Positions 40,958 to 56,041 of a DNA stretch of 56,041 nucleotides are shown piece after piece (the first letter of the stretch is position 1; each line of letters opens with the position of its first letter). Location of the stretch: NCBI GenBank assembly GCA_002347125.1, contig DDXG01000263.1, positions 1 to 56,041 on the forward strand, written 5' to 3'. The translations under genes and the position numbers were made by a program. The stretch is from Phycisphaerales bacterium UBA2266. Lineage in GTDB: Bacteria; Planctomycetota; Phycisphaerae; Sedimentisphaerales; Anaerobacaceae. The notes under the pieces are model-generated. The model saw only the letters and a program-made list of their open reading frames with translations, ran no database searches and was not told where the DNA came from.

Positions 40958-40973
40958 GCCATCGAGCATCACC

Positions 40974-41603: not shown

Positions 41604-43042
41604 GCTATATTCCCCGACTCGAATACGTCTTCTGCGTTCCGCGGGTCTACCAACTCGACTGGCACGTGCCGCTGTACCGCTACATGAACACCATTGGCTT
41701 GCGCCCGCGGATACTGATCGGCGACCTGGATGTCCCGGGGTATCTCAACGGTCACGGGATCGCCTACGAGAGCCTCCGCGAACTGCCCGAGTGCTATGAT
41801 GTCTTCATACCACTGACGACAGGTTTCATGCCCTTTACCCGGTACTGGCTGGAGAAGAGCCTTGCCCGCGGCAAGTTCAACTGCTGGGTTCTGTTGACGG
41901 CGCTGCCGTTTCGCTGTGAGGGGGAGTTCATCTGCCCGACACAGACGCGTTTCCTGCATGCGATGTGCGTGACGGATCAATTGACTATCGACATCGCCCG
42001 CACGATCAACAGCGAAGTCCTCATGCTCAATACGGGCCATCCCCTCTGGGACGACTTCGGCAGACCGTCATTCCACACCGGCGTACAGGAGATACGCAGC
42101 CGCTACGGCCCACGGCTGCTGGTGGTTTCGATTGACCATGACATAGCGAACGACTACCTGTATGCCGAACAGGTCACCCAGGTTGCCCAGGGTCTGGGTT
42201 TTCGCGTCGTGGTGCAGGCCCACCCGGGGATTGTGGACCGCGTGCCCGCATCCCTTCGGGGGCTGCTCAATCCGGGGTTCGATCGATACGCACTGTTTCG
42301 GGCGGCCTCACACGCGATCTGCTTCGTCCTCAGCACGATGAGTTCCGAATGCCTCTATTTGGGCACAAGACTGGCATGCAAGCCCCTCGGGATAGGCCCT
42401 GGTTGTACAAACCCAGGGGACTACTGCTGGTTCAGTGACATCGACCAGTGGTACGAATATCATCGCCCGCTTTTTGACCGGCGATTTCTCGATGCAGTTG
42501 CGATGGTGTATGACGAGGCCACGCTGGTCGAATTTCTGCGCAGCGACGGCCCTGCCATGGCGCATGACCATGTGGCCGGCCTGTTCGGCTGGCCTTGTGT
42601 GCCGTGCTACAGCGAGAATGTCCTGCGTGTGATCGAGCAGGCGTACAGCCGCCCGGAGACGGTGGATCATACGGTCCGCAAGACGCGGGCCGAGACGGGC
42701 ATGACCGTGGATTTCTCCTGGAAGCTGGAGGGCCCCCTCTCACAGTTCGGTGGCTTGAGGGATGCGCCGGCTCTGACGCGGGCCGCCGCCGAACTGCTCA
42801 AACAAGGCCGTATCGACGCTGCACAGAACTGCCTGCGGAGGGCCGAGCGGTTCAGCGGAACCGAACACTTCGACTTCGTCCAGTACGCCCAGGCCCTGTG
42901 CCAGGCCATGACGGGTAACTTGGCGGAGGCGCGAAAGAACATTTACCGCGCACTGTTCGTCAATCCGAGTTGTCCGAGCTACATCGAACTGAGAGACAGA
43001 ATCAATGCCCACCTCGCCTGCTCGTCGGTGGCCGGTTCGTGA
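41600..43042 (+). CDS. Hypothetical protein (480 aa) with C-terminal TPR-like helices; family not recognised
   Basis: I moved the start to ATG 41600 (ATGA overlap). GC3-rich codon usage is consistent with its neighbours. The C-terminus (AAELLKQGRIDAAQNCLRRAERF...ALCQAMTGNLAEARKNIYRALFVNP) is TPR-like. Confidence 0.65.
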   Translation: MSYIPRLEYVFCVPRVYQLDWHVPLYRYMNTIGLRPRILIGDLDVPGYLNGHGIAYESLRELPECYDVFIPLTTGFMPFTRYWLEKSLARGKFNCWVLLTALPFRCEGEFICPTQTRFLHAMCVTDQLTIDIARTINSEVLMLNTGHPLWDDFGRPSFHTGVQEIRSRYGPRLLVVSIDHDIANDYLYAEQVTQVAQGLGFRVVVQAHPGIVDRVPASLRGLLNPGFDRYALFRAASHAICFVLSTMSSECLYLGTRLACKPLGIGPGCTNPGDYCWFSDIDQWYEYHRPLFDRRFLDAVAMVYDEATLVEFLRSDGPAMAHDHVAGLFGWPCVPCYSENVLRVIEQAYSRPETVDHTVRKTRAETGMTVDFSWKLEGPLSQFGGLRDAPALTRAAAELLKQGRIDAAQNCLRRAERFSGTEHFDFVQYAQALCQAMTGNLAEARKNIYRALFVNPSCPSYIELRDRINAHLACSSVAGS

Positions 43043-43050
43043 ACACAGGG

Positions 43051-44340
43051 ATGCTTGACGCCCATTCATCAGGTCGTACGGCCGTACTGAGCAACGGTGC
43101 TCACATACCGGTTCCGCCTGCCGAGCGGCCGCAGGCGAATACAGGATCTACAGCGACCGGCCCCAGGATTCGCCGGCGGGGTCTGCGTTGCACGATTGTC
43201 CTCTGTGGCGGCGAGGACGCAACCCGATTGGAGGCCGCCCTGCGGGCCTGGGCCCCCGTGGTGGTTGACTTCGAGCACGAGGTGCTGCTGGTCAATGACG
43301 GGCATCTAAGCCTGAATGTTACGGCGCTGGGTTCTATCATGGACAACCTCGCGGTCCTGACGCCACCCAGGGATGCAACGCCCGAACAGACGACGCGGCT
43401 GGCGGCCGAGAGGGCCGGCGGCAAGTACCTCGTGTTCGCGCCGGAGCGGGTCCTCCTGGATCGCCTGACGATTCGCAAGCTCGCCGGACGACTCGAGGTA
43501 ACGGGCCTGGCGGCGACGACCCGCGACGGGGCCGCCATTGTGAACCGAAACACGCTACTGGAATACACCGGTCTTTCTGAACTGTTGGAACGAAGCGCCG
43601 CAGATGGCGAATCGACGCGCCGTCGTCAGTATCACCATCACATGTTCGCCGAACTGGCGCATCATATCGACCTCAAGGGCAAGCGAGTGCTTGTTCTGGG
43701 GTGCTCCTACGGCATGGAGTGCGAGTTGATGCGTCTGGCCGGGGCCTCGCGGGTCGTCGGGGTGGATACCTACCCCTGGCTCGGCGTCTATTACGGCCAC
43801 CACGCCATCGAGTATGTCCGGACATCAGCCGAACAGTTGCCCTTTGGCGACGGTTCTTTTGACGTATGCTTCTCGATAGCCACATTCGAGCATATCCCCG
43901 ATCCATGGGCCGCGGCCGAGGAGGCCCTGCGAGTCACGGCCAGCGGCGGATTACTCTACATCCATGCCGCACCACTGTGGAACAGCCCACACGGCCATCA
44001 CAAGGACCATGTGCTGCCGGACCCCTGGATACACCTGGCCATGCCATCGGCCGAACGGATGAAGGCATTCTACCGAGACATCCTGGACCGGCCCGCCGAG
44101 GGGGCCACCGTGGCCGATGTGATCGACTGGCTGTACCACCACAACGACTGCAACCGCAGGCCGCTGGGCGACTACCACAGGATTCTGCGGCGGATGCTGG
44201 ACGATGGCGAGCCGATCCGTGTGGAGTTCACCATGAAACCGCGTGGGATGCTGACCTTGCCGATCCGCGGGCAATTGACCGACTACACCGACGATGAACT
44301 GCTTACGGAGTCCTTGCTGTGGATTCTCAGGCGAACGTAG
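43051..44340 (+). CDS. Class I SAM-dependent methyltransferase with a degenerate GT2-like N-terminal domain
   Basis: I moved the start to ATG 43051. N-terminus: CTIVLCGGEDATRLEAALRAW...LLVNDG...GKYLVFAPE. Methyltransferase region: KRVLVLGCSYGMECELMRLAGASRVVGVD...FDVCFSIATFEHIPDP...LRVTASGGLLYI. Confidence 0.75.
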   Translation: MLDAHSSGRTAVLSNGAHIPVPPAERPQANTGSTATGPRIRRRGLRCTIVLCGGEDATRLEAALRAWAPVVVDFEHEVLLVNDGHLSLNVTALGSIMDNLAVLTPPRDATPEQTTRLAAERAGGKYLVFAPERVLLDRLTIRKLAGRLEVTGLAATTRDGAAIVNRNTLLEYTGLSELLERSAADGESTRRRQYHHHMFAELAHHIDLKGKRVLVLGCSYGMECELMRLAGASRVVGVDTYPWLGVYYGHHAIEYVRTSAEQLPFGDGSFDVCFSIATFEHIPDPWAAAEEALRVTASGGLLYIHAAPLWNSPHGHHKDHVLPDPWIHLAMPSAERMKAFYRDILDRPAEGATVADVIDWLYHHNDCNRRPLGDYHRILRRMLDDGEPIRVEFTMKPRGMLTLPIRGQLTDYTDDELLTESLLWILRRT

Positions 44341-45311
44341 CTCACGGGATATCCGACATATCGAATCGAACCGAACCGGTGCATGTGCTCGTGACAGGAG
44401 GGGCCGGCTATATCGGCTCGATTCTCGTGCCGGCGCTGCTGGCGCGGCGCCACCGCGTCACGGTTATTGACAATATGCTCTACCACCAGGCGTCCCTGCT
44501 CGATTGCTGTGGTGATCCGGCCCTTGAGGTCGTTCGGGGTGACGCCAGGGACCGGGACCTGATCGCCCGGAGCCTCAAGACGGCGGACGTCATCATGCCG
44601 CTGGCCTGTCTGACGGGGGCGCCTCTGTGTGACCGCGACCCCATTGCCGCCAAGACCACGAATCTCGACGCAATCCGGATGCTGCTTGAGTTGCGGGGCC
44701 GCAGCCAGTGGATCATCTTCCCGACGACCAACAGCGGTTACGGTGTCGGTGTCGAGGGCGTCTATTGCACGGAAGAAACGCCGCTGAATCCGATCAGCCT
44801 CTACGGCCGCCTCAAGAGCGACGCTGAGACCGCCATACTCGATGCAGGCAACGCCGTTACGTTCCGACTGGCGACGGTCTTCGGGGCCAGCCCGCGAATG
44901 CGGCTCGACCTGCTCGTCAATGACTTCACGTATCGGGCGGTGACCGACCGGGCGATTGTGCTCTTTGAGGCCCATTTCAGGCGCAACTTCATCCACGTTC
45001 GGGACGTTGCCGCCGCCTTTGCCCACGCGCTGGATTGCTTCGAGGCGATGAAGGACCAGCCGTACAACGTGGGCCGGTCCGACGCCAACTGCTCCAAACT
45101 GGAACTGTGCGAGCACATCCGACAGGTGGTCCCGGACTTCTACTTCACCGAGGCCCGTATCGGCGAGGATCCCGACAAACGTGACTACATCGTCAGCAAC
45201 GAGAAGATCGAGGCAACGGGTTTTCGGGCGGCCCACTCCCTTGACGATGGCATTCGGGAACTGGTGAAGGCCTATAGAATCATCCGCAAGAGTACCTACG
45301 CAAACGTATGA
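44319..45311 (+). CDS. NAD-dependent sugar epimerase/dehydratase/reductase (extended SDR)
   Basis: VLVTGGAGYIGSILVPALLARRHRV and the catalytic YGRLK. The start is uncertain (GTG 44319, overlapping upstream by 22 nt, or GTG 44379). Confidence 0.8.
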   Translation: MDSQANVAHGISDISNRTEPVHVLVTGGAGYIGSILVPALLARRHRVTVIDNMLYHQASLLDCCGDPALEVVRGDARDRDLIARSLKTADVIMPLACLTGAPLCDRDPIAAKTTNLDAIRMLLELRGRSQWIIFPTTNSGYGVGVEGVYCTEETPLNPISLYGRLKSDAETAILDAGNAVTFRLATVFGASPRMRLDLLVNDFTYRAVTDRAIVLFEAHFRRNFIHVRDVAAAFAHALDCFEAMKDQPYNVGRSDANCSKLELCEHIRQVVPDFYFTEARIGEDPDKRDYIVSNEKIEATGFRAAHSLDDGIRELVKAYRIIRKSTYANV

Positions 45312-46117
45312 CGCCGCGAGAACGACTCCAGGAAAGGTCCGAATGGGTGCGTGCCGAAACGCTCCGGCTGCACGCCCGGGCCCCGGAGACTCGGATCGCT
45401 TCATCGCTGTCCGATGTTGAGATACTCGTGGCCCTCTGCTATGGGGGCTTTCTCGATTCCACGGCTGACAACCAGGATAACAGCGAGCGCGACCATCTGA
45501 TTGTCAGCAAGGCGCACGGGGCGGTCTCGCTATATCCCATACTGGCCGATCGAGGCTTCTTCAGTCTTGATGAGCTACAGCGCATCGGCCGGGAGGATGC
45601 ACTGCTGTGCCCGATGCCCGACTGCACCATCCCAGGTATCGAGGCGATCAACGGGTCGCTCGGCCACGGGGTGGGCGTTGCATGCGGCATGGCCTTGGGC
45701 AAGCGGGCCAAGGGTCTGAAATCCACGGTCTTCGTCGTCTGCGGCGATGGGGAACTGAACAGCGGGGCGGTCTGGGAGGCGGTGATGTTCGCGGCACGCC
45801 ATCGCCTGGCGAATGTCGTTCTGATCGTGGACAACAACCGAACCTCCATGCTGGGCCGCCAGAAAGACATCCTGGCGCTCGAACCGCTCGAAGACAAGTT
45901 CGCCGCGTTCGGCTGGGTCGTGCGGACATGCGACGGGCACGACCTCGACGCCCTGTGCGAAGCCATCGGCGGCCTGAAGTGCGAAACCCGTAACGCTCCC
46001 AAGGTCCTCATCGCGAACACTGTCAAGGGCAAAGGCGTGCCGTCGCTGGAAGATGACCCGCTCTGCCACGTTCGATCGCTGCGGCTCGAATACATCGAAG
46101 AGATACTGAGCCGATGA
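45308..46117 (+). CDS. Transketolase, N-terminal (ThDP-binding) subunit
   Basis: DHLIVSKAHGAVSLYPILA, GSLGHGVGVACGMAL, CGDGELNSGAVWEAVMFAARHRLANVVLIVDNN (GDG...NN). An ATGA overlap joins it to the upstream gene. Confidence 0.85.
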   Translation: MTPRERLQERSEWVRAETLRLHARAPETRIASSLSDVEILVALCYGGFLDSTADNQDNSERDHLIVSKAHGAVSLYPILADRGFFSLDELQRIGREDALLCPMPDCTIPGIEAINGSLGHGVGVACGMALGKRAKGLKSTVFVVCGDGELNSGAVWEAVMFAARHRLANVVLIVDNNRTSMLGRQKDILALEPLEDKFAAFGWVVRTCDGHDLDALCEAIGGLKCETRNAPKVLIANTVKGKGVPSLEDDPLCHVRSLRLEYIEEILSR

Positions 46118-47085
46118 AGGAACTGCCACTCCAGACCATGCGGGATGCCCTGATCGAGGGGCTTTGCCGGAGGATGCGCACCGACGGCCGCACGTTCTTT
46201 CTCAGCGCCGATCTGGGTGCCCCGGCCCTGGACCGTCTGCGGACGGACTTTCCTGACCGCTTCATCAACGTAGGCATTGCCGAGCAGAATCTTGTGAACG
46301 TAGCTACAGGGCTGGCGCTGGAGGGTTTTACCGTGTATGCCTATGCGATCGCATCGTTTCTGTCGATGCGGGCATTCGAGCAGATTCGTGTGAATCTCGC
46401 CCTGATGTCGCAGACACGGCCGCTCAACGTCAACCTGGTGGGGCTGGGCGGGGGCGTCAGCTATGATCTCTCCGGGCCGACCCACCATTGTCTTGAAGAC
46501 CTTTCGATTATTCGCACACTGCCCAACCTCATGCTCTTGTCGCCAAGCGACTCGATCATGGCGGGCCGTCTGGCGGATTTCTCGATCTGTATGCGGCGGC
46601 CCAAGTATATCCGCCTCGACGGTAAGCCCTTGCCCTGCATCTACGGTCAGAAGTCCGTCTTTGACTGGGCCAGGGGCTTCCACGAACACACCGTCGGCGA
46701 CGATCTCTGCATAGTGGCGACCGGCTACATGACGCACAAGGCCTTGGGGATCGCCCGGCAACTGGCCGGGCGGATCCGAGTCGGCATCATCGACCTGTTC
46801 ATGCTGAACCCCGTTGACGGCGCCGCCTTGGCCCAAGCCATGAGCCGATACACCTGCGTCGTCACATTGGAGGAGGGGTTCATCGGCCGAGGCGGTCTGG
46901 ACAGCCTTGTGGCGAGCTGTGTAAGGGAATACGGGCTCAACGTGGAGCTGAAGGCCCTGGGTTTCAAGGATGAATACCTGTTCGCTCCGGGTGCGCGGGA
47001 ATCGCTCTACCGCCGACACGGTCTTGGCCAGGAGCAGATTGTCGATCTGATAGCGAGCCTCGTTCCGGCCGCCCATTCCGCATGA
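46114..47085 (+). CDS. Transketolase, C-terminal (pyrimidine-binding) subunit
   Basis: FINVGIAEQNLVNVATGLALEGFTVYAYAIASFLSMRAFEQIR, GPTHHCLEDLSIIRTLPNLMLLSPSD. An ATGA overlap joins it to the upstream gene. Confidence 0.85.
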   Translation: MKELPLQTMRDALIEGLCRRMRTDGRTFFLSADLGAPALDRLRTDFPDRFINVGIAEQNLVNVATGLALEGFTVYAYAIASFLSMRAFEQIRVNLALMSQTRPLNVNLVGLGGGVSYDLSGPTHHCLEDLSIIRTLPNLMLLSPSDSIMAGRLADFSICMRRPKYIRLDGKPLPCIYGQKSVFDWARGFHEHTVGDDLCIVATGYMTHKALGIARQLAGRIRVGIIDLFMLNPVDGAALAQAMSRYTCVVTLEEGFIGRGGLDSLVASCVREYGLNVELKALGFKDEYLFAPGARESLYRRHGLGQEQIVDLIASLVPAAHSA

Positions 47086-48587
47086 GAAGCGACGGTATCG
47101 ACATCCTGTTCGTCCGCCCAACGGATCGCGACGCCATCTACGGCACGCTCAGCACCGCTGTCTCAGCGGTGGAGCCGCCGCTGTGGACCGCCTGGTTGGC
47201 GGCCGTGGCGCGGCGAGAGGGATTCAATGTCCGGATCATAGACGCCGAGGTGGAGCCTGTCTCGCCTGAATCCGTCGCCGCAAGTGCCCGCGGCTTGGGT
47301 GCGGCGCTGGTGGTCTTCACGGTTGTCGGATCGAACCTCTCGGCCTCGACATGGCACATGGAAGGCGCCCGACGGTACCTGGCGGCGTTTGCCGACGATG
47401 CGACACTGCCCCCAACGATGTTGTGGGGCCTGCACCCGTCGGCCCTGCCGCGGAGAACTCTTGAAGAGGAGACCGCCGATTTCCTTTGCGAGGGCGAAGG
47501 CTTCCATACGATCACAGCTCTGGCGGGTGTGCTCAAGGCGGGTAATCGGCCGGGGCACAAGGATATCCCGGGACTCTGGCATCGCCACGGCGGACGAATT
47601 GTGTGCAACCGACGGCAGCGGCCCGTTGAGCGGCTTGATGAACTGCCCGGCCCGGCCTGGGATCTGCTGCCCATGGACCGCTACCGGGCGCACAACTGGC
47701 ACTGTTTCGAAACGCCCGACCGACGGACGCCCTACGCAGTCGTCTGCACGAGCCTGGGCTGTCCGTTTGACTGCGACTTCTGCAACCTCAAGATGCTTCT
47801 TGGCGGTCCCGGCGTGCGCTTCAGGAGTCCACGCAAGGTCCTCGAAGACATTGACAGGCTTGTCTATGAGTACGGGGTCCGTCATATCAAGGTCCTGGAC
47901 GAGTGTTTCGTGCTGCGTGCGAGCCACGTTCATGCCATCTGCGACCTGCTCATCGAACGCGGCTATGACCTCAATATCTGGGCGTACGCGCGCGTCGATA
48001 CGGTAACCGAGCCGCTGCTCCATAAACTTCGGCAGGCTGGCTTTCGGTGGCTGGCGTTCGGGATTGAGTCGGCTACCGCGGAGGTCCGTAACGGCGTTTC
48101 AAAAGGCCAATACACACGCGACGACATCGTTCGAGCCGTCGAAATGACGAACCGGGCGGGTATTCACGTCTTGGCGAACTTCATGTTCGGGTTGCCGGAC
48201 GACGATCTCGACTCGATGCAGCGGACACTCGACCTGGCCATGCAGCTCAATGCCCAGTACACGAACTTCTACTCCACCAAGGCCTATCCCGGTTCGCGGC
48301 TCTACCAGCAGGCCCTCGCCGACGGCGTTCCGCTGCCGGATAGCTGGCGGGGATACCCCGAGTTCAGCGAGGACTGCCTGCCGCTGCCGACAAAGCATCT
48401 GACCGGCGAAGAGGTCCTGGCGTTTCGAGACCGCGCCTTCGTGGAGTTCCACAGCCGGCCCGAGTACCTCAACATGCTTGAATCCCGCTTCGGTCCGGCG
48501 GCCGCAACTCAGATGCGCAATGTCCTCACGCACAGACTCAAACGCCGCCACCGACCCCAGCCGCTTCGGATGATGCCATGCCGTTGA
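47082..48587 (+). CDS. Cobalamin-binding-domain (class B) radical SAM enzyme, 501 aa
   Basis: The N-terminal B12-binding-like region is IDILFVRP...LVVFTVVGSN. The cluster motif is CTSLGCPFDCDFCNL. An ATGA overlap joins it to the upstream gene. Confidence 0.8.
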   Translation: MRSDGIDILFVRPTDRDAIYGTLSTAVSAVEPPLWTAWLAAVARREGFNVRIIDAEVEPVSPESVAASARGLGAALVVFTVVGSNLSASTWHMEGARRYLAAFADDATLPPTMLWGLHPSALPRRTLEEETADFLCEGEGFHTITALAGVLKAGNRPGHKDIPGLWHRHGGRIVCNRRQRPVERLDELPGPAWDLLPMDRYRAHNWHCFETPDRRTPYAVVCTSLGCPFDCDFCNLKMLLGGPGVRFRSPRKVLEDIDRLVYEYGVRHIKVLDECFVLRASHVHAICDLLIERGYDLNIWAYARVDTVTEPLLHKLRQAGFRWLAFGIESATAEVRNGVSKGQYTRDDIVRAVEMTNRAGIHVLANFMFGLPDDDLDSMQRTLDLAMQLNAQYTNFYSTKAYPGSRLYQQALADGVPLPDSWRGYPEFSEDCLPLPTKHLTGEEVLAFRDRAFVEFHSRPEYLNMLESRFGPAAATQMRNVLTHRLKRRHRPQPLRMMPCR

Positions 48588-49789
48588 CAGCCCGAACACA
48601 GAAGAAACCCGCCACGGTCCCATATCTTGACTGGCCTCTGATGCGCAAAAACATCGCGCCGCAGGATTTGGACGTCTTGGTTGAGTTTCTGCGGACCAAC
48701 CCGCGATTGACTCAGTCCGACAACGTCCGGAGGTTCGAGGCCGAGTGGTCGCGGTGGCTCGGTGTCAAGTACAGCGTCTTCGTCAACTCCGGCGCCTCGG
48801 CGAACCTCATCACCATGGCCGCGCTCAGACACCTCCACGGTCCCGGCGAAGTCATCGTGCCGACGCTGACCTGGGTATCGGACATTGCCTCGGTTCTGCA
48901 CGCGGGTCTGACGCCGATCTTTGTGGACATCGACCCGGCGACGCTGTGTATGGATGGCGTCCAGGTCCTGACGAAACTCACCAGCCGCACCCGTGGGGTC
49001 TTTCTCACACACGTCCAGGGCTTCAACGGACTGACGGAGCCTCTTCTGTCGGAATTGCGGGATCGAAGCATACCCTTGATCGAGGACGTGTGCGAGGCGC
49101 ACGGCGCCACGTTCGACGGCCGCAAGCTCGGCAGTCTCGGCTGGGCGTCGAATTTCTCGTTCTACTTCGCCCACCACATGAGCACGATCGAGGGTGGTAT
49201 GATCTGTACAAACGATCCGGAGCTGCACGATATTCTCCGCATGATGCGGTCGCACGGCATGGTACGCGAAGCCGCCGACCCGGCACGGCGGGGCCGCTAC
49301 GCGGCGGACCACCCGGACCTCAATCCGGATTTCATCTTCGCCTTTGGTGCGTTCAATGTCCGTAACACGGAAATCGGGGCCGTCCTCGGCCTGAGCCAAC
49401 TGGCCCGCCTCGACGCCAACAACGTACAACGGCGTCATAACTTCGGGGTATTCCTCGACCATCTCGATCCGACGAAGTACCGCACGGATTTCCATATCGA
49501 GGGAAGCTGCAACTACGCCTTCAACCTCATCCTCAGAGAACCTGACAGAGACCTCCGGGACCGCGTCGAACAGACGCTGCGGCAGGCCGGTGTCGAGTTC
49601 CGGCGGGGCAGCGCCGGCGGCGGAAATCAGCTTCGCCAGCCCTACCTTCGCGGTGTTGTCCCGGATGGCGCCTGGCGTCAATACCCCCACGTTGAGCACG
49701 TCCACTTCTTCGGCTGGTACATCGGCAACTACCCCGGCCTGGAAAAGGCCCGGATTCTGCAACTATGCAGTCTCCTTAATACCCTTTGA
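48578..49789 (+). CDS. DegT-fold PLP/PMP sugar 3-dehydratase (ColD / E1-AscC type), not an aminotransferase
   Basis: The protein has a DegT-like fold, but the Schiff-base Lys position reads His: NFSFYFAHHMSTIEGGMICT. Compare SFSLSPTKLITAGEGG in the 27620 gene. Confidence 0.75.
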   Translation: MPLTARTQKKPATVPYLDWPLMRKNIAPQDLDVLVEFLRTNPRLTQSDNVRRFEAEWSRWLGVKYSVFVNSGASANLITMAALRHLHGPGEVIVPTLTWVSDIASVLHAGLTPIFVDIDPATLCMDGVQVLTKLTSRTRGVFLTHVQGFNGLTEPLLSELRDRSIPLIEDVCEAHGATFDGRKLGSLGWASNFSFYFAHHMSTIEGGMICTNDPELHDILRMMRSHGMVREAADPARRGRYAADHPDLNPDFIFAFGAFNVRNTEIGAVLGLSQLARLDANNVQRRHNFGVFLDHLDPTKYRTDFHIEGSCNYAFNLILREPDRDLRDRVEQTLRQAGVEFRRGSAGGGNQLRQPYLRGVVPDGAWRQYPHVEHVHFFGWYIGNYPGLEKARILQLCSLLNTL

Positions 49790-49794
49790 ACCTC

Positions 49795-50331
49795 ATGTCA
49801 GTGATTCATGTGGAGCCGACCCAACTGGAGGGTGTCGCGGACATCCGGATCGACGCTTTCGCCGATCACCGCGGCCGCTTCATCGAAACGTACAACCGCG
49901 GTCTCTATGCCCGCCACGGTATCGACATCGATTTCGTGCAGGACGACCTGTCCATCTCCGGTCGCGATGTGCTGCGGGGGTTCCACGGCGACAATTGCAC
50001 GCGGAAACTCGTCTCCTGCATCCACGGACGCATCTTCTTCGTCGTCCTCAACTGTGACCGCACATCCGACCAGTGCGGACAGTGGCAATCGTTTACGCTC
50101 GACGGCGACGAGCCCAGGCAGATTCTCATCCCCCCGCGTTTTGCCAATGCGTACCTGGCCCTCAGCGACAAGATCGTCTTCACATACAAGCAATCGGCCT
50201 ATTACGACCGGTCCCGCCAGTTCTCTGTCCGGTGGAACGACCCGCGACTGGCAATTGACTGGCCCATCCAGCATCCTATTCTGTCCGAACGTGATCGAAC
50301 GTCGCCTTTCTTCGCGGAGTTGGCCGGATGA
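49795..50331 (+). CDS. RmlC-fold NDP-4-keto-6-deoxy-sugar 3,5-epimerase
   Basis: DHRGRFIETYN, VLRGFHGD, and a cupin-type C-terminus. The start could be ATG 49795 or TTG 49786 (TTGA overlap). Confidence 0.85.
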   Translation: MSVIHVEPTQLEGVADIRIDAFADHRGRFIETYNRGLYARHGIDIDFVQDDLSISGRDVLRGFHGDNCTRKLVSCIHGRIFFVVLNCDRTSDQCGQWQSFTLDGDEPRQILIPPRFANAYLALSDKIVFTYKQSAYYDRSRQFSVRWNDPRLAIDWPIQHPILSERDRTSPFFAELAG

Positions 50332-51347
50332 TCATCAGCAGAACGCCATTTCGAATCTCGTTCTTCGGCGGCGGCACCGATTACCCCGGTTGGTACCAAA
50401 AAGACGGCGGGGCGGTGCTGAGCACGACGATTGACAAGTACTGTTATATCTCGTGCCGCTACCTGCCTCCATTCTTCGACCACCGCTATCTCATCCGCTA
50501 CCGTGTTATCGAGACGGTCGGACACATGGAAGAAATCCGCCATCCGTCCGTCCGCGAGTGCCTGCGGTTCATGGGCATCCAGGACGGCATCGAGATGGTC
50601 CATAACAGCGACCTGCCCGCACGCTCCGGGATCGGTTCCAGTTCCGCCTTCACTGTTGGTCTCCTGAATACGCTCTATGCCCTGACCGGTCGCATGGTCG
50701 GTAAACGCAAACTCGCCGCCGACGCCATCTGTATCGAACAACAGATGATCCGCGAAAACGTCGGTTCGCAGGACCAGGTTGCGGCCGCATTCGGCGGCCT
50801 TAACCGCATCGAGTTCAACGGCCGCGAGGACTTCATTGTCAGCCCCATCACCATCGACCATCGCAAGATCAGGACCCTGCAGAACCATCTCATGCTATTT
50901 TTTACGGGTCTGTCGCGAACGGCTTCGGAGATCGCCGCCGAACAGATGCGCAACGTGGAGCATAACCGCGCGGAACTGCGCACCATGAGACAGATGGTGG
51001 ATGAGGCCGTCCGCATCCTCAACGGCCCGGTGGACGGCATAGAGGACTTCGGGCGGCTGCTCAATGAGTCGTGGATGCTCAAACGCACGCTGTCCAGCCG
51101 TGTGTCGAACACGGCCATCGACGACATTTACCAGGCCGCGATGCAGAGCGGCGCCATCGGGGGCAAGTTGTGCGGGGCGGGCGGCGGGGGGTTCATCCTG
51201 TTGTTTGTCCCCCCGCGCAAGCAGCGAATGGTCCGCCGCGCGCTCAAGGATTTGCTCTTCGTGCCGTTTACATTTGAAACACTCGGCTCCCATATCATTC
51301 TCTACGCGAACAAGGAATATGACGCCAGGCCACTTATCTGGAACTGA
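50328..51347 (+). CDS. GHMP-family sugar kinase (HddA-like D-glycero-D-manno-heptose 7-phosphate kinase type)
   Basis: RTPFRISFFGGGTDYP..., GHMP motif DLPARSGIGSSSAFTVGL, GGKLCGAGGGGFILLF. An ATGA overlap joins it to the upstream gene. Confidence 0.8.
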   Translation: MIISRTPFRISFFGGGTDYPGWYQKDGGAVLSTTIDKYCYISCRYLPPFFDHRYLIRYRVIETVGHMEEIRHPSVRECLRFMGIQDGIEMVHNSDLPARSGIGSSSAFTVGLLNTLYALTGRMVGKRKLAADAICIEQQMIRENVGSQDQVAAAFGGLNRIEFNGREDFIVSPITIDHRKIRTLQNHLMLFFTGLSRTASEIAAEQMRNVEHNRAELRTMRQMVDEAVRILNGPVDGIEDFGRLLNESWMLKRTLSSRVSNTAIDDIYQAAMQSGAIGGKLCGAGGGGFILLFVPPRKQRMVRRALKDLLFVPFTFETLGSHIILYANKEYDARPLIWN

Positions 51348-52059
51348 TGTTGTGATTCTGTGCGGCGGCAAGGGCTCCCGTCTGCGACCGGCCGTCAACG
51401 ACCGTCCCAAGCCCATGGCCGACATCCACGGCCGGCCCTTCCTTCGGATTCTGGTGGACTACTTTGCCGGATTCGGAGCCGAACGCTTCATCTTCTGCAC
51501 CGGCTACAGGGCCGACGCCATACGTGACTATTTCACCAACCGCCAGGCGCCGCTCCAGTTTGTCTTTTCGGAGGAGCCCATTTTCCTGGGAACGGCCGGC
51601 GGCCTGCGGCACGCGCAGCGATTCATCCATAGCGATCCGTTCCTTGTGACAAACGGCGATTCCTTCTGTCCGGCCAACCTGGCGTGGTTCTACTACTTCC
51701 ACAGCCTGCGCCGGGCTCTGATGTCCATGATCGCCGTCAAGAGCGACGACCCGGTCGACTACGGATCCGTCACCTTCGATGATGGTCTGCGGTTTACGGG
51801 TTTCGCGGAAAAGGCCTGTGAACGCGGTCCCTCCCATGTGAATGCGGGCATCTATCTGTTCAGCAGGGACCTGCTCGCCCTGATTCCGGCCGGTCGGCCC
51901 TGGTCGCTGGAATTCGACCTTTTCCCCAAGCTGGTACACGGCCCCGGCTATGTCCTGCCCTGCAATGCCAATTGTATCGACATAGGCACGCCCGAGCGCC
52001 TCGCGGCGGCTCGACAGTACTTCGCCGCTCAGACGGCGACTGTCGGGGTCGGCTCATGA
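51319..52059 (+). CDS. Sugar-1-phosphate nucleotidyltransferase (HddC/RmlA-fold)
   Basis: VVILCGGKGSRLRPAVNDRPKPMADIHGRPFL...GTAGGL...NGDSF. The start is uncertain (ATG 51319, overlapping the kinase gene by 29 nt, or GTG 51352); the listed 51064 extension is not credible. Confidence 0.8.
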   Translation: MTPGHLSGTDVVILCGGKGSRLRPAVNDRPKPMADIHGRPFLRILVDYFAGFGAERFIFCTGYRADAIRDYFTNRQAPLQFVFSEEPIFLGTAGGLRHAQRFIHSDPFLVTNGDSFCPANLAWFYYFHSLRRALMSMIAVKSDDPVDYGSVTFDDGLRFTGFAEKACERGPSHVNAGIYLFSRDLLALIPAGRPWSLEFDLFPKLVHGPGYVLPCNANCIDIGTPERLAAARQYFAAQTATVGVGS

Positions 52060-55000
52060 CGATGGAACGGACACGGCCCTATCCACTGGTTTCCCTGGTC
52101 TGCTTCTGCAGGAATGCCGCGCCGACCATCCTCCATTGCATTGATGCGGCCCTGGCGCAGGACTATCCGAATGTCGAGGTCGTGGTTCAGGACGGCGCCT
52201 CGACGGACGGCACGCTGGAGATTCTGAGGACCTACGGGGACCGGATCCGCCTGGTCAGCGAGCCCGACAAGGGGCCCAACGACGCCATGTGCAAGGCCCT
52301 GCGGCGCGTCAACGGGGAGATATTCGCCTTTACACTGGCCGATGAACAACTCATGCCCCACGCCGTCTCCTGGGCGGTCCAGAGCCTGTCAGAGTGGCCC
52401 CAGACGGCCGCAGTCTACGGTCCGCACTACACCACCGACATCGAGGGCAACATCACAGGCACTGTGACACCGCCGGCCTGGGATTGCCCGGCATATCTGT
52501 GTTCGGAGATCACGCCGCCGTTGTGCAGTTCCTTCTTCCGCCGCCGGGTCTACGAGCAGATTGCCTTTGACCAATACACCGGTGCGGATGAATTTGACCT
52601 CTGGATCAACCTGGGCGTTCGATTCGACATCCGCTATGTCCCGTGTCCGCTACCCTTGGCCAAGTACGCCGTCCACGGCGGATCCGTCAGCTTCACCAAG
52701 GAGCACCAGGACAGGCGCCTGGCCTCGCGGCGGCGCGCCATCGAGAAGCTGTGTACGGACCCCGCCACGCCGGAGTGGGCGCGCCGGCTGAAGGACCGCG
52801 CCATCGACAGCCTCCTGGTCTGGCACGCCGATAGCCTCTGCTGTCTTGGCCTCTGGGAGCATGTCAAGGACGAGGCGCCTCGTGCATTTGCCGCCGGCCC
52901 GAACCGTCAGGTCCTTCATACGTTGGCCGTCAAGATACTGCGCCACGCCGAACAGTTGCACCGGCGCGGCGAGAATGCCGAAGCCCGCGAATTCATCAAC
53001 CTGCTCAAACGCTGCAAGATTCACGGCGAACCGATCGATACTCTCAAGCATGTTGTCGAGGCGGACTGCGCCTCGGTTGCCGATCCGGCCCCATGCCCCT
53101 CCAACCCGATTGCCCCTTCCTCACGGAGATCCGATATGCCGTTGCGATTCTTGATTGTCAACACGGATTATGAGCCGTTTCTCGCCCGCCTGTACGCCGA
53201 AAACCCCGGTCTCGAGATGCGGCCCTTCGAACAGCAGTATGAGGCCCGTATGGCCACCTGTTTCGGCGTGGCGGACTTCTACTCGAAGAACCTGAGGGCC
53301 CTGGGCCACGAAGCCGCCGACATCATCTACAACGCCCCATTCATGCAATACGCCTGGGCCCGCGAGAACGGCCTGATCGCCCGGACGCAAACCGACCCGC
53401 GGCAGATCGCCGCCATGACGGCGGAGCATCTGGCCGCCATACTTCAGGCCAGGGTCCGCCTGTTCAAGCCGGATATCATCATCAACCTGGCGATGGAGCA
53501 AGTCACCAGCGACGTCCTGAATCCCGTCAAACCCTTTGTCCGTCTGATTGTGGGCCAACATGCCGCGCCTCTGACAATGGCCATGAGGGACCTGTCGGCC
53601 TATGATCTACTGTTGTCCTCCATACCGGGCTATGTCGACGGTTTCCGCCGTCTGGGCAAGCCCGCCGAGTACTTTCGTCTGGGCTTCGAGTCGACCCTCC
53701 TGGACCACGTGGACATCCCATCGGACCGGCCGGTTGACGTTGCCTTCGTAGGCCAGTTCACGGGCGGCCACAAGGGTGGAACCGAGCTATTCAACGCCCT
53801 CGCCGACCGCGGCTTCGCCATGAATCTGCACGGCTTCGGATACGACGGTCTCTCGGATAAGGCCCGCGAGTCTTTCAAGGGTCCGCTCTTCGGGCTGGAG
53901 ATGTACAGACTCTACAGCCGCGCCCGAGTCGTCCTGAACCGCCACATTGACATTGCCGGTCCGCACGCCAACAACATGCGGCTCTACGAGGCCACGGGCA
54001 TGGGGGCCTTGCTGCTGACCGACCGCAAGGACAATCTCCATGAACTGTTTGCTCCCGGCCGGGAGGTTGTGGCCTACGAATCCGCGGAACACTGCGCCGA
54101 GTTGCTGCGGCACTTCCTGGATAGCGAATCCGAACGGGCCCGTATCGCCGCCGCCGGCCAGGGGCGGACGCTGCGGGAGCATACCTACCGACATCGGATG
54201 GCCGAATTGGCGCAGATGGTTCAGGAATACACCACAACCGCCGACAAGGCGGCCTCGCCGCCGTTGTCGGAATCGGTCGCACCGCATCACGTGATCGAGA
54301 TTCGGCCGGAGAGCACACGGCAGGACTTCGAGCGATTACGGAGCCTCGCGGGGCGGGAGCGGTTCGGCGACTACTGCGTCAAGTTCAATGGCCTGACGAT
54401 CTACTGCCACGACCTGCTGTCGTTCTACATGGCCGCCAAAGACATCTTCCTGCAGCGCATCTATGACTTCGAGACGGACAATCCGCGACCGGTCATAATC
54501 GATGGGGGCGGACACATCGGCCTGTTCAGCCTGTACACCGCGCAGCGATACCCCGACGCCCGAATCACCATCTTCGAGCCGGACGGCGAGTCGCTCGAGT
54601 TATTGCACAAGAACCTCCGGGCCAACAACGTCACGGCCACCGTGGTGGATGCGGGTTTGCACAAGTCCGACGCGACGCTCGGTTTCTCCGCCGACCACTC
54701 CGATGGTGGCAGTTTCTACAGCGGATCCGGTGACACGAAGGTACGGGTCGTCCCGCTGAGCCGGTATATCGAGGGTGAAATCGACTTTCTGAAGCTCAAC
54801 ATCGAAGGGGCCGAGACCGACGTCGTCGCCGAGATCGCCGACAGATTGCACTTTGTCGAGGAACTGGTCATCGAGTACCACGGCTTTCCTGAAACAGGCC
54901 AGAATCTTCACAAGATACTGGCGCTCTTGGCGGCGGCGGGATTCCGCTACATGATCCACGACTTCGACGGTCTGACCAACCCCGCCACCAAGCCGCCGTT

Positions 55001-56041
55001 CAGGATAACCGCCGAGACACGCTTCTTCCTGCTGGTCTACGCCAAGCGGGTTCTCTCGCCGGAACTGATGGGGAATGAATCTGGGACAGAGAAGGACAGT
55101 TGCTCATCACCGCGGCGTATAGCGGCCGTGTGCAGCGCCGGATGTGAGCCGGTCAGCCGCAGATTCGGCTACGATCTCGGAACGCCCATCGACCGTATCT
55201 ACATTGAGCGGTTTCTTGCGGAGAATGCCTCCGCCATCCGGGGCATAGTGCTGGAAATCGGCGACGACCAATACAGCCGCAAGTACGGCTCCCGGACCAC
55301 TCGTGTGGACGTCCTGAGTGCTGCGGCTTCGGAGACGGCCACGCTCGTGGGCGACCTGGCGACCGGCCGGAACATCCCGTCGAGCGCCTACGATTGCATT
55401 ATCCTGACGCAGACCCTTCAGATGATATACGACGTCAAGGCCGCCCTGCGGATCGCCGCCGAGGCCCTCAAACCCGGCGGGACATTGCTGCTGACGGCCT
55501 CCGGCATCAGCCACATATCACGCTATGATATGGACCGCTGGGGCGAATACTGGCGGTTCACGGACAAGAGCCTGCGTATGCTCCTCGACGAGGTCTTTCC
55601 TGAAGGCAGCGTGAATGTCCAGGCGTACGGCAACGTGGCGGCGGCCAAGGCCTTTCTTGATGGCGTACCTGCCGAACAGTTGTCCAACGAGGTCCTTGCC
55701 CACAATGATCCGGACTATCAGGTTCTGCTGGCCGCCCGAGCCATCAAGGCCGCCGCGCCTGTCGGGAATCATGCCGCGAAACCCGCTGTGGTGTCTGGGG
55801 AGCCAAGGGACTCCATGGCGGCTACGCCTGCGCCGAATTCGGGGGGCGGGCGTCCGAGGGTTGTCTTCGAGCATCCTCTGATCCTCCTATACCACCGCGT
55901 CGCCGATGACCCCGTTGACGCCCAGCTCCTGGCGGCCAGCCCGGAGAATTTCGATGCTCACATGGCCGAACTGGCGGCGTATTGGCGTGTCGTGCCGCTG
56001 CCGACCCTCGTAGAGGAGATCCGCCACGGCCGGTATGCGCC
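52056..56041 (+). CDS. Multidomain glycan-tailoring protein, partial at the 3' end (at least 1,328 aa): GT2 + CgeB-like GT + FkbM methyltransferase + class I SAM methyltransferase + polysaccharide-deacetylase-like N-terminus
   Basis: This ORF is not in the supplied track because it has no stop inside the window. Reading frame 0 codon by codon from ATG 52056 (ATGA overlap with the upstream stop) to nt 56041 gives no stop. Motifs: VSLVCFCRNAAP...VVVQDGASTDGT (GT2); MPLRFLIVNTDYEPF...NMRLYEATGMGALLLTD (from 53136); VIIDGGGHIGLF...IDFLKLNIEGAE (FkbM); IVLEIGDD...LKPGGTLLLT (methyltransferase); HPLILLYHRV (deacetylase-like). Confidence 0.85.
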   Translation, partial: MTMERTRPYPLVSLVCFCRNAAPTILHCIDAALAQDYPNVEVVVQDGASTDGTLEILRTYGDRIRLVSEPDKGPNDAMCKALRRVNGEIFAFTLADEQLMPHAVSWAVQSLSEWPQTAAVYGPHYTTDIEGNITGTVTPPAWDCPAYLCSEITPPLCSSFFRRRVYEQIAFDQYTGADEFDLWINLGVRFDIRYVPCPLPLAKYAVHGGSVSFTKEHQDRRLASRRRAIEKLCTDPATPEWARRLKDRAIDSLLVWHADSLCCLGLWEHVKDEAPRAFAAGPNRQVLHTLAVKILRHAEQLHRRGENAEAREFINLLKRCKIHGEPIDTLKHVVEADCASVADPAPCPSNPIAPSSRRSDMPLRFLIVNTDYEPFLARLYAENPGLEMRPFEQQYEARMATCFGVADFYSKNLRALGHEAADIIYNAPFMQYAWARENGLIARTQTDPRQIAAMTAEHLAAILQARVRLFKPDIIINLAMEQVTSDVLNPVKPFVRLIVGQHAAPLTMAMRDLSAYDLLLSSIPGYVDGFRRLGKPAEYFRLGFESTLLDHVDIPSDRPVDVAFVGQFTGGHKGGTELFNALADRGFAMNLHGFGYDGLSDKARESFKGPLFGLEMYRLYSRARVVLNRHIDIAGPHANNMRLYEATGMGALLLTDRKDNLHELFAPGREVVAYESAEHCAELLRHFLDSESERARIAAAGQGRTLREHTYRHRMAELAQMVQEYTTTADKAASPPLSESVAPHHVIEIRPESTRQDFERLRSLAGRERFGDYCVKFNGLTIYCHDLLSFYMAAKDIFLQRIYDFETDNPRPVIIDGGGHIGLFSLYTAQRYPDARITIFEPDGESLELLHKNLRANNVTATVVDAGLHKSDATLGFSADHSDGGSFYSGSGDTKVRVVPLSRYIEGEIDFLKLNIEGAETDVVAEIADRLHFVEELVIEYHGFPETGQNLHKILALLAAAGFRYMIHDFDGLTNPATKPPFRITAETRFFLLVYAKRVLSPELMGNESGTEKDSCSSPRRIAAVCSAGCEPVSRRFGYDLGTPIDRIYIERFLAENASAIRGIVLEIGDDQYSRKYGSRTTRVDVLSAAASETATLVGDLATGRNIPSSAYDCIILTQTLQMIYDVKAALRIAAEALKPGGTLLLTASGISHISRYDMDRWGEYWRFTDKSLRMLLDEVFPEGSVNVQAYGNVAAAKAFLDGVPAEQLSNEVLAHNDPDYQVLLAARAIKAAAPVGNHAAKPAVVSGEPRDSMAATPAPNSGGGRPRVVFEHPLILLYHRVADDPVDAQLLAASPENFDAHMAELAAYWRVVPLPTLVEEIRHGRYA

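Follow-up and report, generated by a model that had tools for sequence, protein, structure and literature searches.

The window, that is the whole stretch of 56,041 nucleotides which was analysed, ends within a single gene that fuses five glycan-related modules. The fusion is genuine, and we consider it likely that it formed in place, belongs to a flagellin glycosylation island and extends and tailors the flagellin glycan in the cytoplasm.

Translation of the window gives an open frame that runs from the ATG at 52056 to position 56041 on the + strand, 1,328 codons with no stop, whereas the remaining five frames over 52056-56041 have 11-44 stops each and a longest open stretch of 182 codons. 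The chance of such a stop-free run, calculated from local base composition, is 7e-17, and the GC content at codon positions 1, 2 and 3 (0.64/0.44/0.79) has ordinary coding periodicity. Translation and coding statistics thus bear out the initial annotation, which had claimed an open frame of at least 1,328 codons from this ATG and had attributed its absence from the ORF track to its running off the window; the list does exclude ORFs of that kind. The start codon (52056-52058) shares the sequence ATGA with the TGA (52057-52059) of the upstream nucleotidyltransferase gene, which is the overlap with sugar-nucleotide genes that had been described. Two full-length orthologues, P0001 (1,589 aa, 92% identity) and P0003 (1,587 aa, 58% identity), predict a total length of approximately 1,612-1,614 aa, so that about 285 codons lie past the window end. 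The frame makes up the 5' 83% of one genuine gene, which belongs to a Phycisphaerales-like planctomycete and has a product of approximately 1,612 aa. An exact 50-mer from the window end, which might have served to extend the contig, found no match in the metagenome collection. The gene and its parts are listed below with the evidence for each.

52056..56041, + strand: fused gene, 5' 1,328 codons (open frame and its chance probability, periodicity, full-length orthologues)
52056..52700, + strand: M1, soluble GT-A fold family-2 glycosyltransferase, aa 1-215 (PF00535, AF2, Foldseek)
52701..53075, + strand: seven-helix folded domain joined to M1, aa 216-340 (AF2, co-occurrence, dN/dS)
53076..53135, + strand: tether 1, aa 341-360, approximately 20 residues, disordered, Pro/Ser-rich (pLDDT 31-37)
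53136..54230, + strand: M2, CgeB-like / Glyco_trans_1_2 GT-B-type glycosyltransferase, aa 361-725 (PF13524)
54231..54305, + strand: tether 2, aa 726-750 (pLDDT below 50 for residues 728-750)
54306..55061, + strand: M3, FkbM-family SAM methyltransferase, aa 751-1002 (PF05050, TIGR01444, motifs, AF2)
55062..55142, + strand: tether 3, aa 1003-1029, disordered in the AF2 model (strain comparison)
55143..55790, + strand: M4, atypical class I methyltransferase-fold domain, aa 1030-1245 (PF13489, PF08241, AF2)
55791..55874, + strand: tether 4, aa 1246-1273 (alignment gaps; 25-aa indel relative to P0001)
55875..56041, + strand: start of M5, CE4 polysaccharide-deacetylase-like, aa 1274-1328 (alignment to M5 of P0001 and P0003)

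Profile searches recovered four of the five modules from the window above curated thresholds, in agreement with the GT2, CgeB-like, FkbM and class I methyltransferase assignments made earlier. M1 matches PF00535 (Glycos_transf_2) with 64.0 bits (cut-off 23.3) over aa 15-127; its AF2 model has a pLDDT of approximately 80 and a Foldseek TM score of 0.83 to 6p61, with K4CP, SpsA and WrtF also among the matches. Asp46, Asp51 and Asp96 show conservation of 90% or more, and the DXD position reads A-D-E, so that one Asp alone is strictly kept. What follows M1 had been described as a helical linker, a description that has to be replaced: the AF2 model and co-occurrence point to a folded seven-helix domain which always accompanies the GT2, the tether being residues ~341-360 only. 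This domain is compact (pLDDT 85-92), with short helices of 5-20 residues and a dN/dS of 0.19-0.25. Together with M1 it heads four further giants (E values from 1e-23 to 1e-31), and it also accompanies M1 in the stand-alone protein P0206.

M2 matches nearly the whole of PF13524 (118.7 bits, cut-off 25) over aa 578-719; in its AF2 model the N-terminal, Rossmann-like half has a pLDDT of 60-87, and the C-terminal half is poorly modelled (below 50) because of a shallow alignment. In M3, PF05050 (Methyltransf_21; 44.6 bits, cut-off 22.7) and TIGR01444 (63.5 bits, cut-off 37.7) are both recovered, the motifs IDGGGHIGLF, FEPD and KLNIEG are conserved, the AF2 pLDDT is above 90, and the profile matches the FkbM structure 2py6 in the PDB. 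M4 matches PF13489 (Methyltransf_23; 32.9 bits, cut-off 27) and PF08241 (Methyltransf_11; 25.3 bits, cut-off 21.2), in each case with the C-terminal half of the profile only; its AF2 model (pLDDT above 90) has the class I methyltransferase fold, and Foldseek matches it to tandem and single class I methyltransferases. Its signature is ISRYDMDRWGEYWRFT. A glycine-rich motif I (E/DxGxGxG) was not found in M4, where the segment reads VLEIGDDQY and only VLE...Y is conserved in 34-57 homologues. The absence of a GxGxG SAM loop makes methyltransferase activity uncertain, and M4 may not be a methyltransferase. It is found both by itself and in fusions with many other tailoring enzymes, its partners in different proteins being sulfo-, pyruvyl-, methyl- and glycosyl-transferases. 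Catalytic signatures are otherwise conserved across all modules.

The deacetylase that had been proposed at the end of the frame is recognised by its profile only in orthologues of full length. Within the window M5 gave no PF01522 match at E <= 0.1, because the approximately 55 residues present are all N-terminal to the Pfam-defined core. In the full-length orthologue P0001, M5 matches PF01522 (Polysacc_deac_1) with 74.7 bits (cut-off 23.1), and 23 homologues share the motifs TFDDGY, GxHxxxH and YPxG. The residues present in the window match the beginning of the CE4 modules of the orthologues, the final 43 (aa 1286-1328) with 88% identity to P0001 and 63% to P0003.

Comparison of strains shows that the fusion is real. 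It is intact at 92% identity in an independent JGI assembly (L034, encoding P0001) and at 58% in a MAG from the Pirellulales (L002, encoding P0003), so that the uninterrupted frame is common to three independent assemblies. Every module has a dN/dS of 0.12-0.25, which indicates purifying selection on all modules, while the tethers have values of 0.65-0.80 (tether 1, 24% identity to L002 and dN/dS 0.65; tether 2, 30% and 0.80) and their indels are all in frame. Tether 3 is constant at 27 codons yet hypervariable between near-identical strains (30% aa identity, dN 0.73, dS ~1.0, between flanks of 94-98% identity), with no frameshift. Every module is also found as a stand-alone protein, the ends of which coincide with the tethers. 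One might suspect an artefact, either a decaying pseudogene or a set of neighbours run together when assembly or sequencing dropped a stop or introduced an indel at a junction, because close relatives show both fused (P0001) and unfused (P0002) forms, because indels can occur in contigs from MAGs and metagenomes, and because tethers 3 and 4 diverge sharply between close strains. The recurrence of the frame at 92% and 58% identity, the selection on all modules, the in-frame tether indels and the chance probability of 7e-17 nevertheless argue against it, and the unfused state of strain L001 comes from an out-of-frame deletion of 860 nt, with a vestige remaining, and not from a junction stop codon. 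We therefore regard an artefact of either kind as almost certainly excluded.

The initial annotation took the internal Met at 53136 for a former start codon, and comparison with homologues strongly supports it as the old start of M2. Dozens of stand-alone M2 homologues align their own residue 1 to query residue 361-364, and P0002, P0004, P0186 and L007 begin at the equivalent Met, as does the gene in L001. Within tether 1 a Shine-Dalgarno-like GGAG (53125-53128) is followed after 7 nt by the ATG, and both are kept in the window, L034, L001 and L002; in an older fusion of M2 to another head (L003, P0187, P0188) the Met was lost. If the site at 53125-53138 still initiated translation, the gene would give two products, one with all five modules and one with M2-M5 only. 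Several observations fit this: the window and L002, whose proteins are 58% identical, both retain GGAG, spacing and ATG in a tether which is only 24% identical; the site is the sole start in L001 and L007; the older fusion has lost the Met; and a similar SD-like motif was seen for 11 of the 29 + strand genes whose starts were checked in the window. Against it, there are just two independent fused lineages, conservation of approximately 12 of 15 nt could reflect chance or recent common ancestry, and the residues R-[RS]-S-D-M could be kept for protein reasons; we rate a second product as rather unlikely. It would be compatible with the five-module reading and does not exclude it.

How the fusion formed can be read from its relatives. 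In orthologous operons the modules are carried as separate adjacent genes, as had been claimed for such activities in general; in other phyla the order is MT / CE4 / GT4 / GT2, and the M4-M5 order of the separate-gene operons is kept in the fusion. Since the modules are separate neighbouring genes elsewhere, the M4-M5 order is kept and the old M2 start is retained with its GGAG, the fusion probably arose in place from adjacent operon genes. A graded series is seen, which starts with separate genes, passes through fusions of two, three and four modules and ends with the five-module fusion. Of 1.84 billion representatives clustered at 50% identity, a single cluster has the exact five-module form, but the same core also underlies many other fusions of at least five modules; the rarity implied at first was thus overstated, and the arrangement is unusual, not unprecedented. 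Public databases already hold homologues under the uninformative name 'FkbM family methyltransferase'. Strain L001, which is 86-93% identical, has no counterpart of window region 23276-52016 (a 28.7 kb sugar island); it has also lost M1, of which a decayed, out-of-frame vestige remains, and its gene starts at the internal Met. By this alignment L001 is a natural deletion variant in which M1 and the sugar island were lost together. As L001 keeps M2-M5 although the whole island is missing, these modules are independent of the sugars made there, which counts against the mechanism proposed below.

The surroundings of the fused gene are those of a flagellar locus, a context absent from the first reading of the sequence. 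FlgE, FlgF/G, FlgA, FlgH, FlgI, FlgN and FlgK are encoded upstream of the flagellin gene, which is listed below with the features that follow it.

17693..18877, + strand: flagellin gene, presumed acceptor (Flagellin_N)
19015..20610, + strand: TPR + GT-B (Glycos_transf_1) protein of FlmG-like architecture (Pfam TPR + GT1)
20640..22858, + strand: GT2 protein (20640-22238) and TPR protein (22229-22858) (Pfam; same order in L038)
23311..52059, + strand: sugar-biosynthesis island, ~26 genes (Pfam)
44319..52059, + strand: second sugar-nucleotide cassette at the island's 3' end (epimerase, split transketolase, B12-rSAM, DegT, RmlC-like, GHMP kinase, NTP-transferase)

The TPR-GT gene also directly follows flagellin in L001, L007 and L038, and by analogy its product is a candidate flagellin-binding priming transferase. 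The island encodes a nonulosonic-acid pathway (NeuB, NeuC-type epimerase, PglD-like, PseB/LegB-like dehydratase, DegT and CMP-synthetase) plus tailoring genes, and the equivalent of its second cassette directly precedes M1-headed giants in L034, L002, L035, L036 and L037. In relatives the fused gene is followed by a protein of approximately 2,200 aa with five glycosyltransferase domains (GT4 and four GT2), and then by fliD, which comes after this next gene in L001, L002, L007, L036, L037 and L038 and would lie beyond the window here. Every Planctomycetota locus seen has the fused gene between flagellin and fliD, and the same locus type surrounds four other M1-headed giants. The M3-M4-M5 core adjoins flagellin genes and FlbT on a contig that encodes a protein named by NCBI from Trichlorobacter lovleyi, and it adjoins NeuB and CMP-synthetase genes in L040. 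Among the window genes Pfam annotation turned up neither a flippase nor a polymerase, an ABC exporter or a priming transferase; for the set of priming phosphoglycosyltransferase, flippase, polymerase, ABC exporter and ligase the outcome was likewise negative, both in the window and in the flagellar loci of relatives. No transmembrane segment or signal peptide was found in the fused protein, the following giant, the TPR-GT1 protein or the GT2 protein. On gene content the locus is a probable flagellin glycosylation island in which membrane and export genes were not found, and the fused product is predicted to be a soluble, cytoplasmic multi-enzyme.

Several characterised systems have parts of this arrangement. 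WsaE, of the S-layer glycan of Geobacillus stearothermophilus NRS 2004/3a, is a soluble protein with a methyltransferase and two glycosyltransferase domains (PMC2943079). Compared by description, it likewise puts glycan-extending and methylating enzymes on one polypeptide, but it consists of three modules, works on a lipid-linked rhamnan served by a Wzm/Wzt exporter and ends the chain with a methyl cap, whereas the fused protein has five modules, including a CE4 and a second methyltransferase-fold domain, in a flagellar locus with no exporter genes found nearby. The O-antigen proteins Klebsiella O7 ORF6 and O4 ORF7, WbdA/WbdD and WbbB distribute their glycosyltransferase, methyltransferase and kinase modules variably between single- and multi-module proteins, depending on the serotype (PMC11231755), to which the module shuffling among the fused protein and its relatives is a parallel. 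Terminators of the WbdD/WbbB type are Wzm/Wzt-dependent and have a long coiled-coil molecular ruler; in the fused protein the helical region is modelled as a compact domain of seven helices, with no ABC transporter by Pfam among the window genes and a presumed protein acceptor. In the FlmG systems of Caulobacter and Brevundimonas a TPR + GT-B protein, encoded with nonulosonic-acid genes, adds pseudaminic or legionaminic acid to flagellin in the cytoplasm (PMC7591256; bioRxiv 10.1101/2022.03.25.485807). By architecture the window resembles these systems, in that a single train of genes encodes flagellin, a TPR-GT-B protein and a NeuB/CMP-synthetase pathway; FlmG systems as described add one nonulosonic acid, and the cited FlmG literature describes no counterpart of the five-module tailoring protein and the five-GT giant. 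Flagellin islands of Geobacillus, Pseudomonas syringae and Clostridium botulinum are inserted in the flagellar locus near flagellin and fliD and have nonulosonic-acid genes, glycosyltransferases and FkbM methyltransferases (PMC5109656), but there the methyltransferases are described as separate genes, not fused modules. The soluble chlorovirus PBCV-1 protein A111/114R combines three glycosyltransferase functions on a protein-linked glycan (PMC7826918); as far as that description extends, it is viral, is made up of GT domains alone and has an N-linked glycan of the capsid as its target, and it is not known to be related in sequence to the fused protein.

Since the gene lies within a flagellum gene cluster, it probably both builds and trims the sugar coat on flagellin. 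We infer that the acceptor would be the flagellin glycan, as we do the donor sugars, the reaction order and the activity of each module. The TPR-GT protein would probably prime flagellin in the cytoplasm with CMP-nonulosonic acid from the island, after which the five-module protein and the following ~2,200-aa protein would extend the glycan. M1 probably takes an NDP-sugar from the cassette directly upstream, M3 and M4 may O- or N-methylate the glycan and M5 may de-N-acetylate it, with extension, methylation and de-N-acetylation all preceding flagellin export. The part suggested earlier, that of an assembly-line finishing enzyme, would be of this kind.

The target could instead be a lipid-linked surface polysaccharide (O-antigen, capsule or EPS), the position in a flagellar cluster being incidental. 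CE4 deacetylases and FkbM methyltransferases are classic polysaccharide tailors, action outside the cytoplasm is commoner for CE4 enzymes, which counts against cytoplasmic tailoring, and WsaE and Klebsiella O7 ORF6, the multi-module GT/MT proteins that have been characterised best, use undecaprenol-linked glycans. Moreover, Chitinophagaceae and Desulfuromonadales have a reduced, unfused cassette (MT / CE4 / GT4 / GT2) beside a Wzx flippase gene (with Wzy in L025), so the modules are not intrinsically flagellin-specific. What makes this reading distinctly unlikely for the fused gene is the lack of lipid-carrier and export genes by Pfam in the window and in relatives' flagellar loci, the flagellin-fliD position in every Planctomycetota locus seen, the flagellins and FlbT that adjoin the core on the Trichlorobacter-type contig, and the constant neighbour of FlmG-like architecture.

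The flagellin reading can be carried further, to a combination that we rate as rather unlikely as a whole. In Planctomycetota and some Desulfuromonadota the flagellin-fliD interval might be a lipid-carrier-independent cytoplasmic line in which two mega-enzymes (at least 10 modules) make a long, methylated, partly de-N-acetylated heteroglycan on flagellin; module shuffling by swapped heads, insertions and deletions such as that in L001 might give strain-level diversity of the flagellar surface, and the internal start might give two isoforms.

Flagellin glycosylation has mainly been worked out for one or a few sugars added by single-domain enzymes. Here approximately ten glycosyltransferase, methyltransferase and deacetylase modules occur in two soluble proteins within a flagellar locus, with no membrane machinery by Pfam. 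The practical value is modest; the natural series from separate genes to fusion is a clean evolutionary record of an operon condensing into a multi-enzyme, and M4 is a widespread, uncharacterised hub domain of biochemical interest. If the flagellin reading is true, bacteria can assemble and tailor complex protein glycans wholly in the cytoplasm, and gene fusion and module swapping would vary the flagellar glycan between strains.

A stop-free frame of 1,328 codons extends by translation from ATG 52056 to the end of the window (52056-56041, + strand), as the initial annotation had proposed. The chance of such an open frame, given the local base composition, is 7e-17; the other five frames of this stretch contain 11-44 stops, and GC content in the fused frame is 0.64/0.44/0.79 at codon positions 1/2/3. 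The frame is missing from the ORF lists solely because it runs off the window, the reason suspected initially, and the predicted ATGA overlap with the upstream sugar-nucleotide gene was confirmed, the start codon of the fused gene being shared with the TGA of the preceding nucleotidyltransferase gene. The mechanical ORF of that neighbor (51064-52059, 331 aa) overlaps the GHMP kinase gene, its Pfam match does not begin until residue 96, and locus L034 has a called orthologue of 235 aa; the true start in the window probably lies near 51350.

In an attempt to extend the window, the exact 50-mer at 55950-55999 had no match in metagenome_contigs, and the true stop of the fused gene was therefore inferred from orthologues. 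P0001 (1,589 aa, 92% identity to the fused protein) is from an independent JGI metagenome contig with identical upstream genes, 4-nt start/stop overlap and following gene, and P0003 (1,587 aa, 58% identity) is from a Pirellulales MAG that is collinear with window 42374-55602. Compared with both relatives, every module has a dN/dS of 0.12-0.25, while the linkers between modules (tethers) are near-neutral (dN/dS 0.65-0.80) and differ by in-frame indels. The fusion is intact in independent assemblies and its modules are under constraint; together with the in-frame tether indels, this excludes an assembly artefact or pseudogene for practical purposes, and we regard the former as extremely improbable. 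That the structural claims for the fused protein hold is nearly certain.

Modules were placed by Pfam and NCBIfam matches above curated thresholds.

Modules of the fused protein matched within the window
Residues 15-127, Glycos_transf_2 (M1)
Residues 578-719, Glyco_trans_1_2 (M2)
Residues 813-965, FkbM / Methyltransf_21 (M3)
Residues 1096-1169, Methyltransf_23/11 (M4)

Four of the five modules named initially were thus recovered. The fifth, a deacetylase (M5), has no profile match within the window sequence, where about 55 of its residues are present, ahead of the Pfam core; in alignments they correspond to the first part of the CE4 module of full-length orthologues, and it is there that PF01522 is matched (74.7 bits). 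AlphaFold models were made of residues 1-750 and, from a 57-sequence alignment, of residues 750-1250. The first contains a GT-A domain in M1 followed by a confidently folded seven-helix domain (residues 215-340, pLDDT 85-92), and only residues ~342-361, tether 1, are disordered (pLDDT 31-37), so that most of what had been called a helical linker is a domain. A coiled-coil molecular ruler as in WbdD/WbbB was considered for this region and rejected, since in the model its helices are short and packed into a compact bundle, and this bundle is found wherever M1 is. M1 and its helical domain are modeled well, but the C-terminal half of M2 poorly, which leaves the GT-B fold of M2 a prediction. Foldseek neighbors of M1 are soluble GT2 enzymes, among them 6p61 (TM 0.83), K4CP, SpsA and WrtF. 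The second model (mean pLDDT 89.8) consists of two class I methyltransferase folds with a disordered tether between them. Signature residues are kept in all modules across fused and unfused homologues; M4 departs from this in one respect, being without the GxGxG SAM loop, but has a nearly invariant block, ISRYDMDRWGEYWRFT. A PDB sequence search with a whole orthologue found relatives for M1 and M5 only, an M3+M4 profile found only uncharacterised structural-genomics methyltransferases, and Foldseek of the M3+M4 model found generic class I folds; none of these searches returned a characterised close relative.

Tether 3 (window 55062-55142, aa 1003-1029) has hypervariable DNA in a comparison of three strains whose identity elsewhere is 94-98%, with 30% aa identity, dN of 0.73 and dS of ~1.0 over a constant length of 27 codons. 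Paired compensating frameshifts were rejected because the DNA alignment has constant-length substitutions and no alternative-frame match; local hypermutation, diversifying selection and mosaic recombination are candidate causes.

The initial annotation described a glycan island, and the sugar genes do lie upstream of the fused gene; it missed the flagellar nature of the locus, which Pfam annotation reveals.

Gene train leading to the fused gene
Start of the train, + strand, annotated FlgE, rod proteins, FlgA, FlgH, FlgI, FlgN and FlgK, in that order
17693-18877, + strand, flagellin, following FlgK
19015-20610, + strand, TPR + GT-B protein, after flagellin
After the TPR + GT-B gene, + strand, GT2, then a TPR protein
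Next, + strand, about 26 sugar genes: NeuB, NeuC-type epimerase, PglD-like protein, dehydratase, DegT, CMP-synthetase
Sugar genes continued, + strand, B12-radical-SAM enzymes, an E1/E2/PPTase set, split transketolase
Sugar genes continued, + strand, RmlC-like protein, GHMP kinase, NTP-transferase; then the fused gene

In two related loci, L001 (a Phycisphaerales MAG) and L002 (which carries P0003), the next gene downstream of the fused one encodes 2,175-2,292 aa and combines a GT4 domain with four GT2 domains, and FliD comes after it; L007 is arranged likewise, its fusion being M2-M4-M5. The TPR + GT-B protein has the architecture of FlmG, a flagellin pseudaminyl/legionaminyl transferase (PMC7591256; bioRxiv 10.1101/2022.03.25.485807), a likeness of architecture alone. 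Neither transmembrane segments nor signal peptides were found in the fused protein, the five-GT giant, TPR-GT1 or GT2. The soluble giant is encoded at L001 13971-20849, L002 14770-21297, L007 12809-19360 and L040 14526-21254. Other phyla with unfused operons encode its N-terminal GT4 part on its own, directly after the CE4 gene; a second operon-to-polyprotein condensation thus adjoins the first.

Within the nonulosonic-acid island, window 37626-41603 encodes a fused E1 alpha+beta 2-oxoacid dehydrogenase (701 aa), a lipoyl-E2 acyltransferase and a 4'-phosphopantetheinyl transferase, near two B12-radical-SAM enzymes, a radical-SAM/SPASM enzyme and the split transketolase; this set, unusual for a sugar pathway, suggests an acyl or branched-chain sugar decoration. 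Ahead of the flagellar genes (77-1198, +; 1205-2683, -; 3700-6261, -) are a DisA_N (DAC)/YbbR diadenylate-cyclase-like protein, a sigma-54-dependent response regulator, which may control flagellar gene expression, and large TPR proteins. Three conserved ORFs could be assigned to no Pfam family with significance: a 107-aa ORF after the TPR gene (22859-23182), with a counterpart in L038; one of 464 aa in the FlgE/rod-gene interval (8985-10379); and an island ORF of ~480 aa (41366-43042) with weak TPR matches only.

The modules are widely distributed. Adjacent unfused genes in the order MT, CE4, GT4, GT2 are found in Acidobacteria, Binatia, Verrucomicrobia, Gemmatimonadota, Chitinophagaceae and Desulfuromonadales; fusions elsewhere are M3-M4-M5, M2-M4-M5 or M2-M3-M4-M5, and the M3+M4 didomain is very common as a stand-alone protein. 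When 1.84 billion representatives were scanned exhaustively with HMMER, only one cluster representative, P0003, matched residues 3-1200 in one stretch. Other fusions of at least five modules (P0186, P0187, P0192, P0193 and P0194) have different heads or inserts on the same core, and the gene for P0187 is preceded by NeuB and CMP-synthetase genes. M4, with its invariant block and no GxGxG, is a promiscuous fusion partner: in the survey of its fusions (P0068, P0070, P0130-P0146, P0154-P0182) it is joined to sulfotransferases (PF00685), pyruvyl transferases (PF04230), GT2, CE4, FkbM and a capsule-synthesis domain (PF05159), and may be a common docking or recognition domain, not a methyltransferase.

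M1 and the helical domain also head four other giants (L035-L038; 1,755-2,150 aa) at 47-59% identity, with quite different downstream modules, and all four sit between flagellin and fliD, a slot that appears to be a hot spot of module shuffling. This head is the sole part shared with the window protein; the other modules include GT9, Methyltransf_24, GT1 and TPR, and GT11 in a second giant. A GHMP kinase and NTP-transferase immediately precede M1 in six of seven loci; strict coupling was rejected because L038 breaks it, and the association is therefore only a tendency.

The initial reading of Met 361 (ATG 53136) as a former start codon is well supported. P0002, P0004 and P0186 have the N-terminus MS[LY]RF[LM]IVNTDY exactly at this residue, dozens of stand-alone M2 proteins begin at query residues 361-364, and L007 has a stop three codons upstream of the equivalent Met. 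In L001 (DSDB01000614; 86-93% DNA identity) the alignment covers 13311-23275 and resumes at 53011. Between these, what remains in L001 is ~40 nt from the 3' end of the last island gene plus the initial ~31 codons of M1 (74% identity), after which the sequence joins the tether out of frame; the vestigial ORF, 62 codons long and decayed, ends 25 nt before the M2 start (L001 9960-10100). The ancestor of L001 therefore had the island and the fusion. Two separate deletions followed, one of 28.7 kb (23276-52016) and one that took 860 nt out of the GT2 module (52151-53010), and L001 would now express M2-M5 from the old start; in effect, both the island and M1 have been knocked out naturally.

Two products might still be made from the intact gene by internal initiation at ATG 53136: a GGAG lies 7 nt upstream and is kept with the ATG in the window and L002 though the surrounding tether is 24% identical, and older fusions that join M2 to other heads have lost the Met, which leaves such initiation a possibility. 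We rate it as fairly unlikely; it is compatible with the main model. The alternative that the protein acts on a lipid-linked surface polysaccharide instead of flagellin draws on Pfam context in two other phyla, where a reduced, unfused cassette adjoins Wzx/Wzy, so that the modules are not intrinsically flagellin-specific; by phmmer, most non-Planctomycetota loci have no flagellar genes in their 10-kb flanks. Against this alternative, Pfam annotation finds no flippase, polymerase, exporter or priming transferase among the window genes, and outside Planctomycetota an M3-M4-M5 protein named by NCBI from Trichlorobacter lovleyi has two flagellin genes and FlbT as neighbors, besides GT4/GT2 genes and one that is CgeB-like; we consider the alternative unlikely.

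Characterised precedents exist for multi-module glycan enzymes, namely WsaE, in which a methyltransferase is joined to two rhamnosyltransferase domains (PMC2943079), and Klebsiella O-antigen enzymes (PMC11231755), and for flagellin glycosylation, in FlmG systems (PMC7591256; bioRxiv 10.1101/2022.03.25.485807) and islands with FkbM genes (PMC5109656). The window protein differs in joining five modules, a CE4 and an atypical MT-fold domain included, and in lying among flagellar genes, in a locus that yielded no export genes. A literature search found nothing specific on flagellin glycosylation in Planctomycetes. Databases already list close homologues under the name 'FkbM family methyltransferase'; as far as we found, the module-shuffled family is without prior description.

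The fused protein probably functions in building and tailoring a flagellin glycan. In the proposed mechanism, the TPR-GT protein probably primes flagellin while it is in the cytoplasm, with a CMP-nonulosonic acid made by the island, and the glycan would then be extended by the five-module protein and the five-GT protein that follows. The donor for M1 is probably the NDP-sugar of the cassette just upstream, which would explain their joint loss in L001. Before export, M3 and M4 would methylate the glycan and M5 would remove N-acetyl groups, and the fusion would hold consecutive activities together on a substrate that lacks a membrane anchor.
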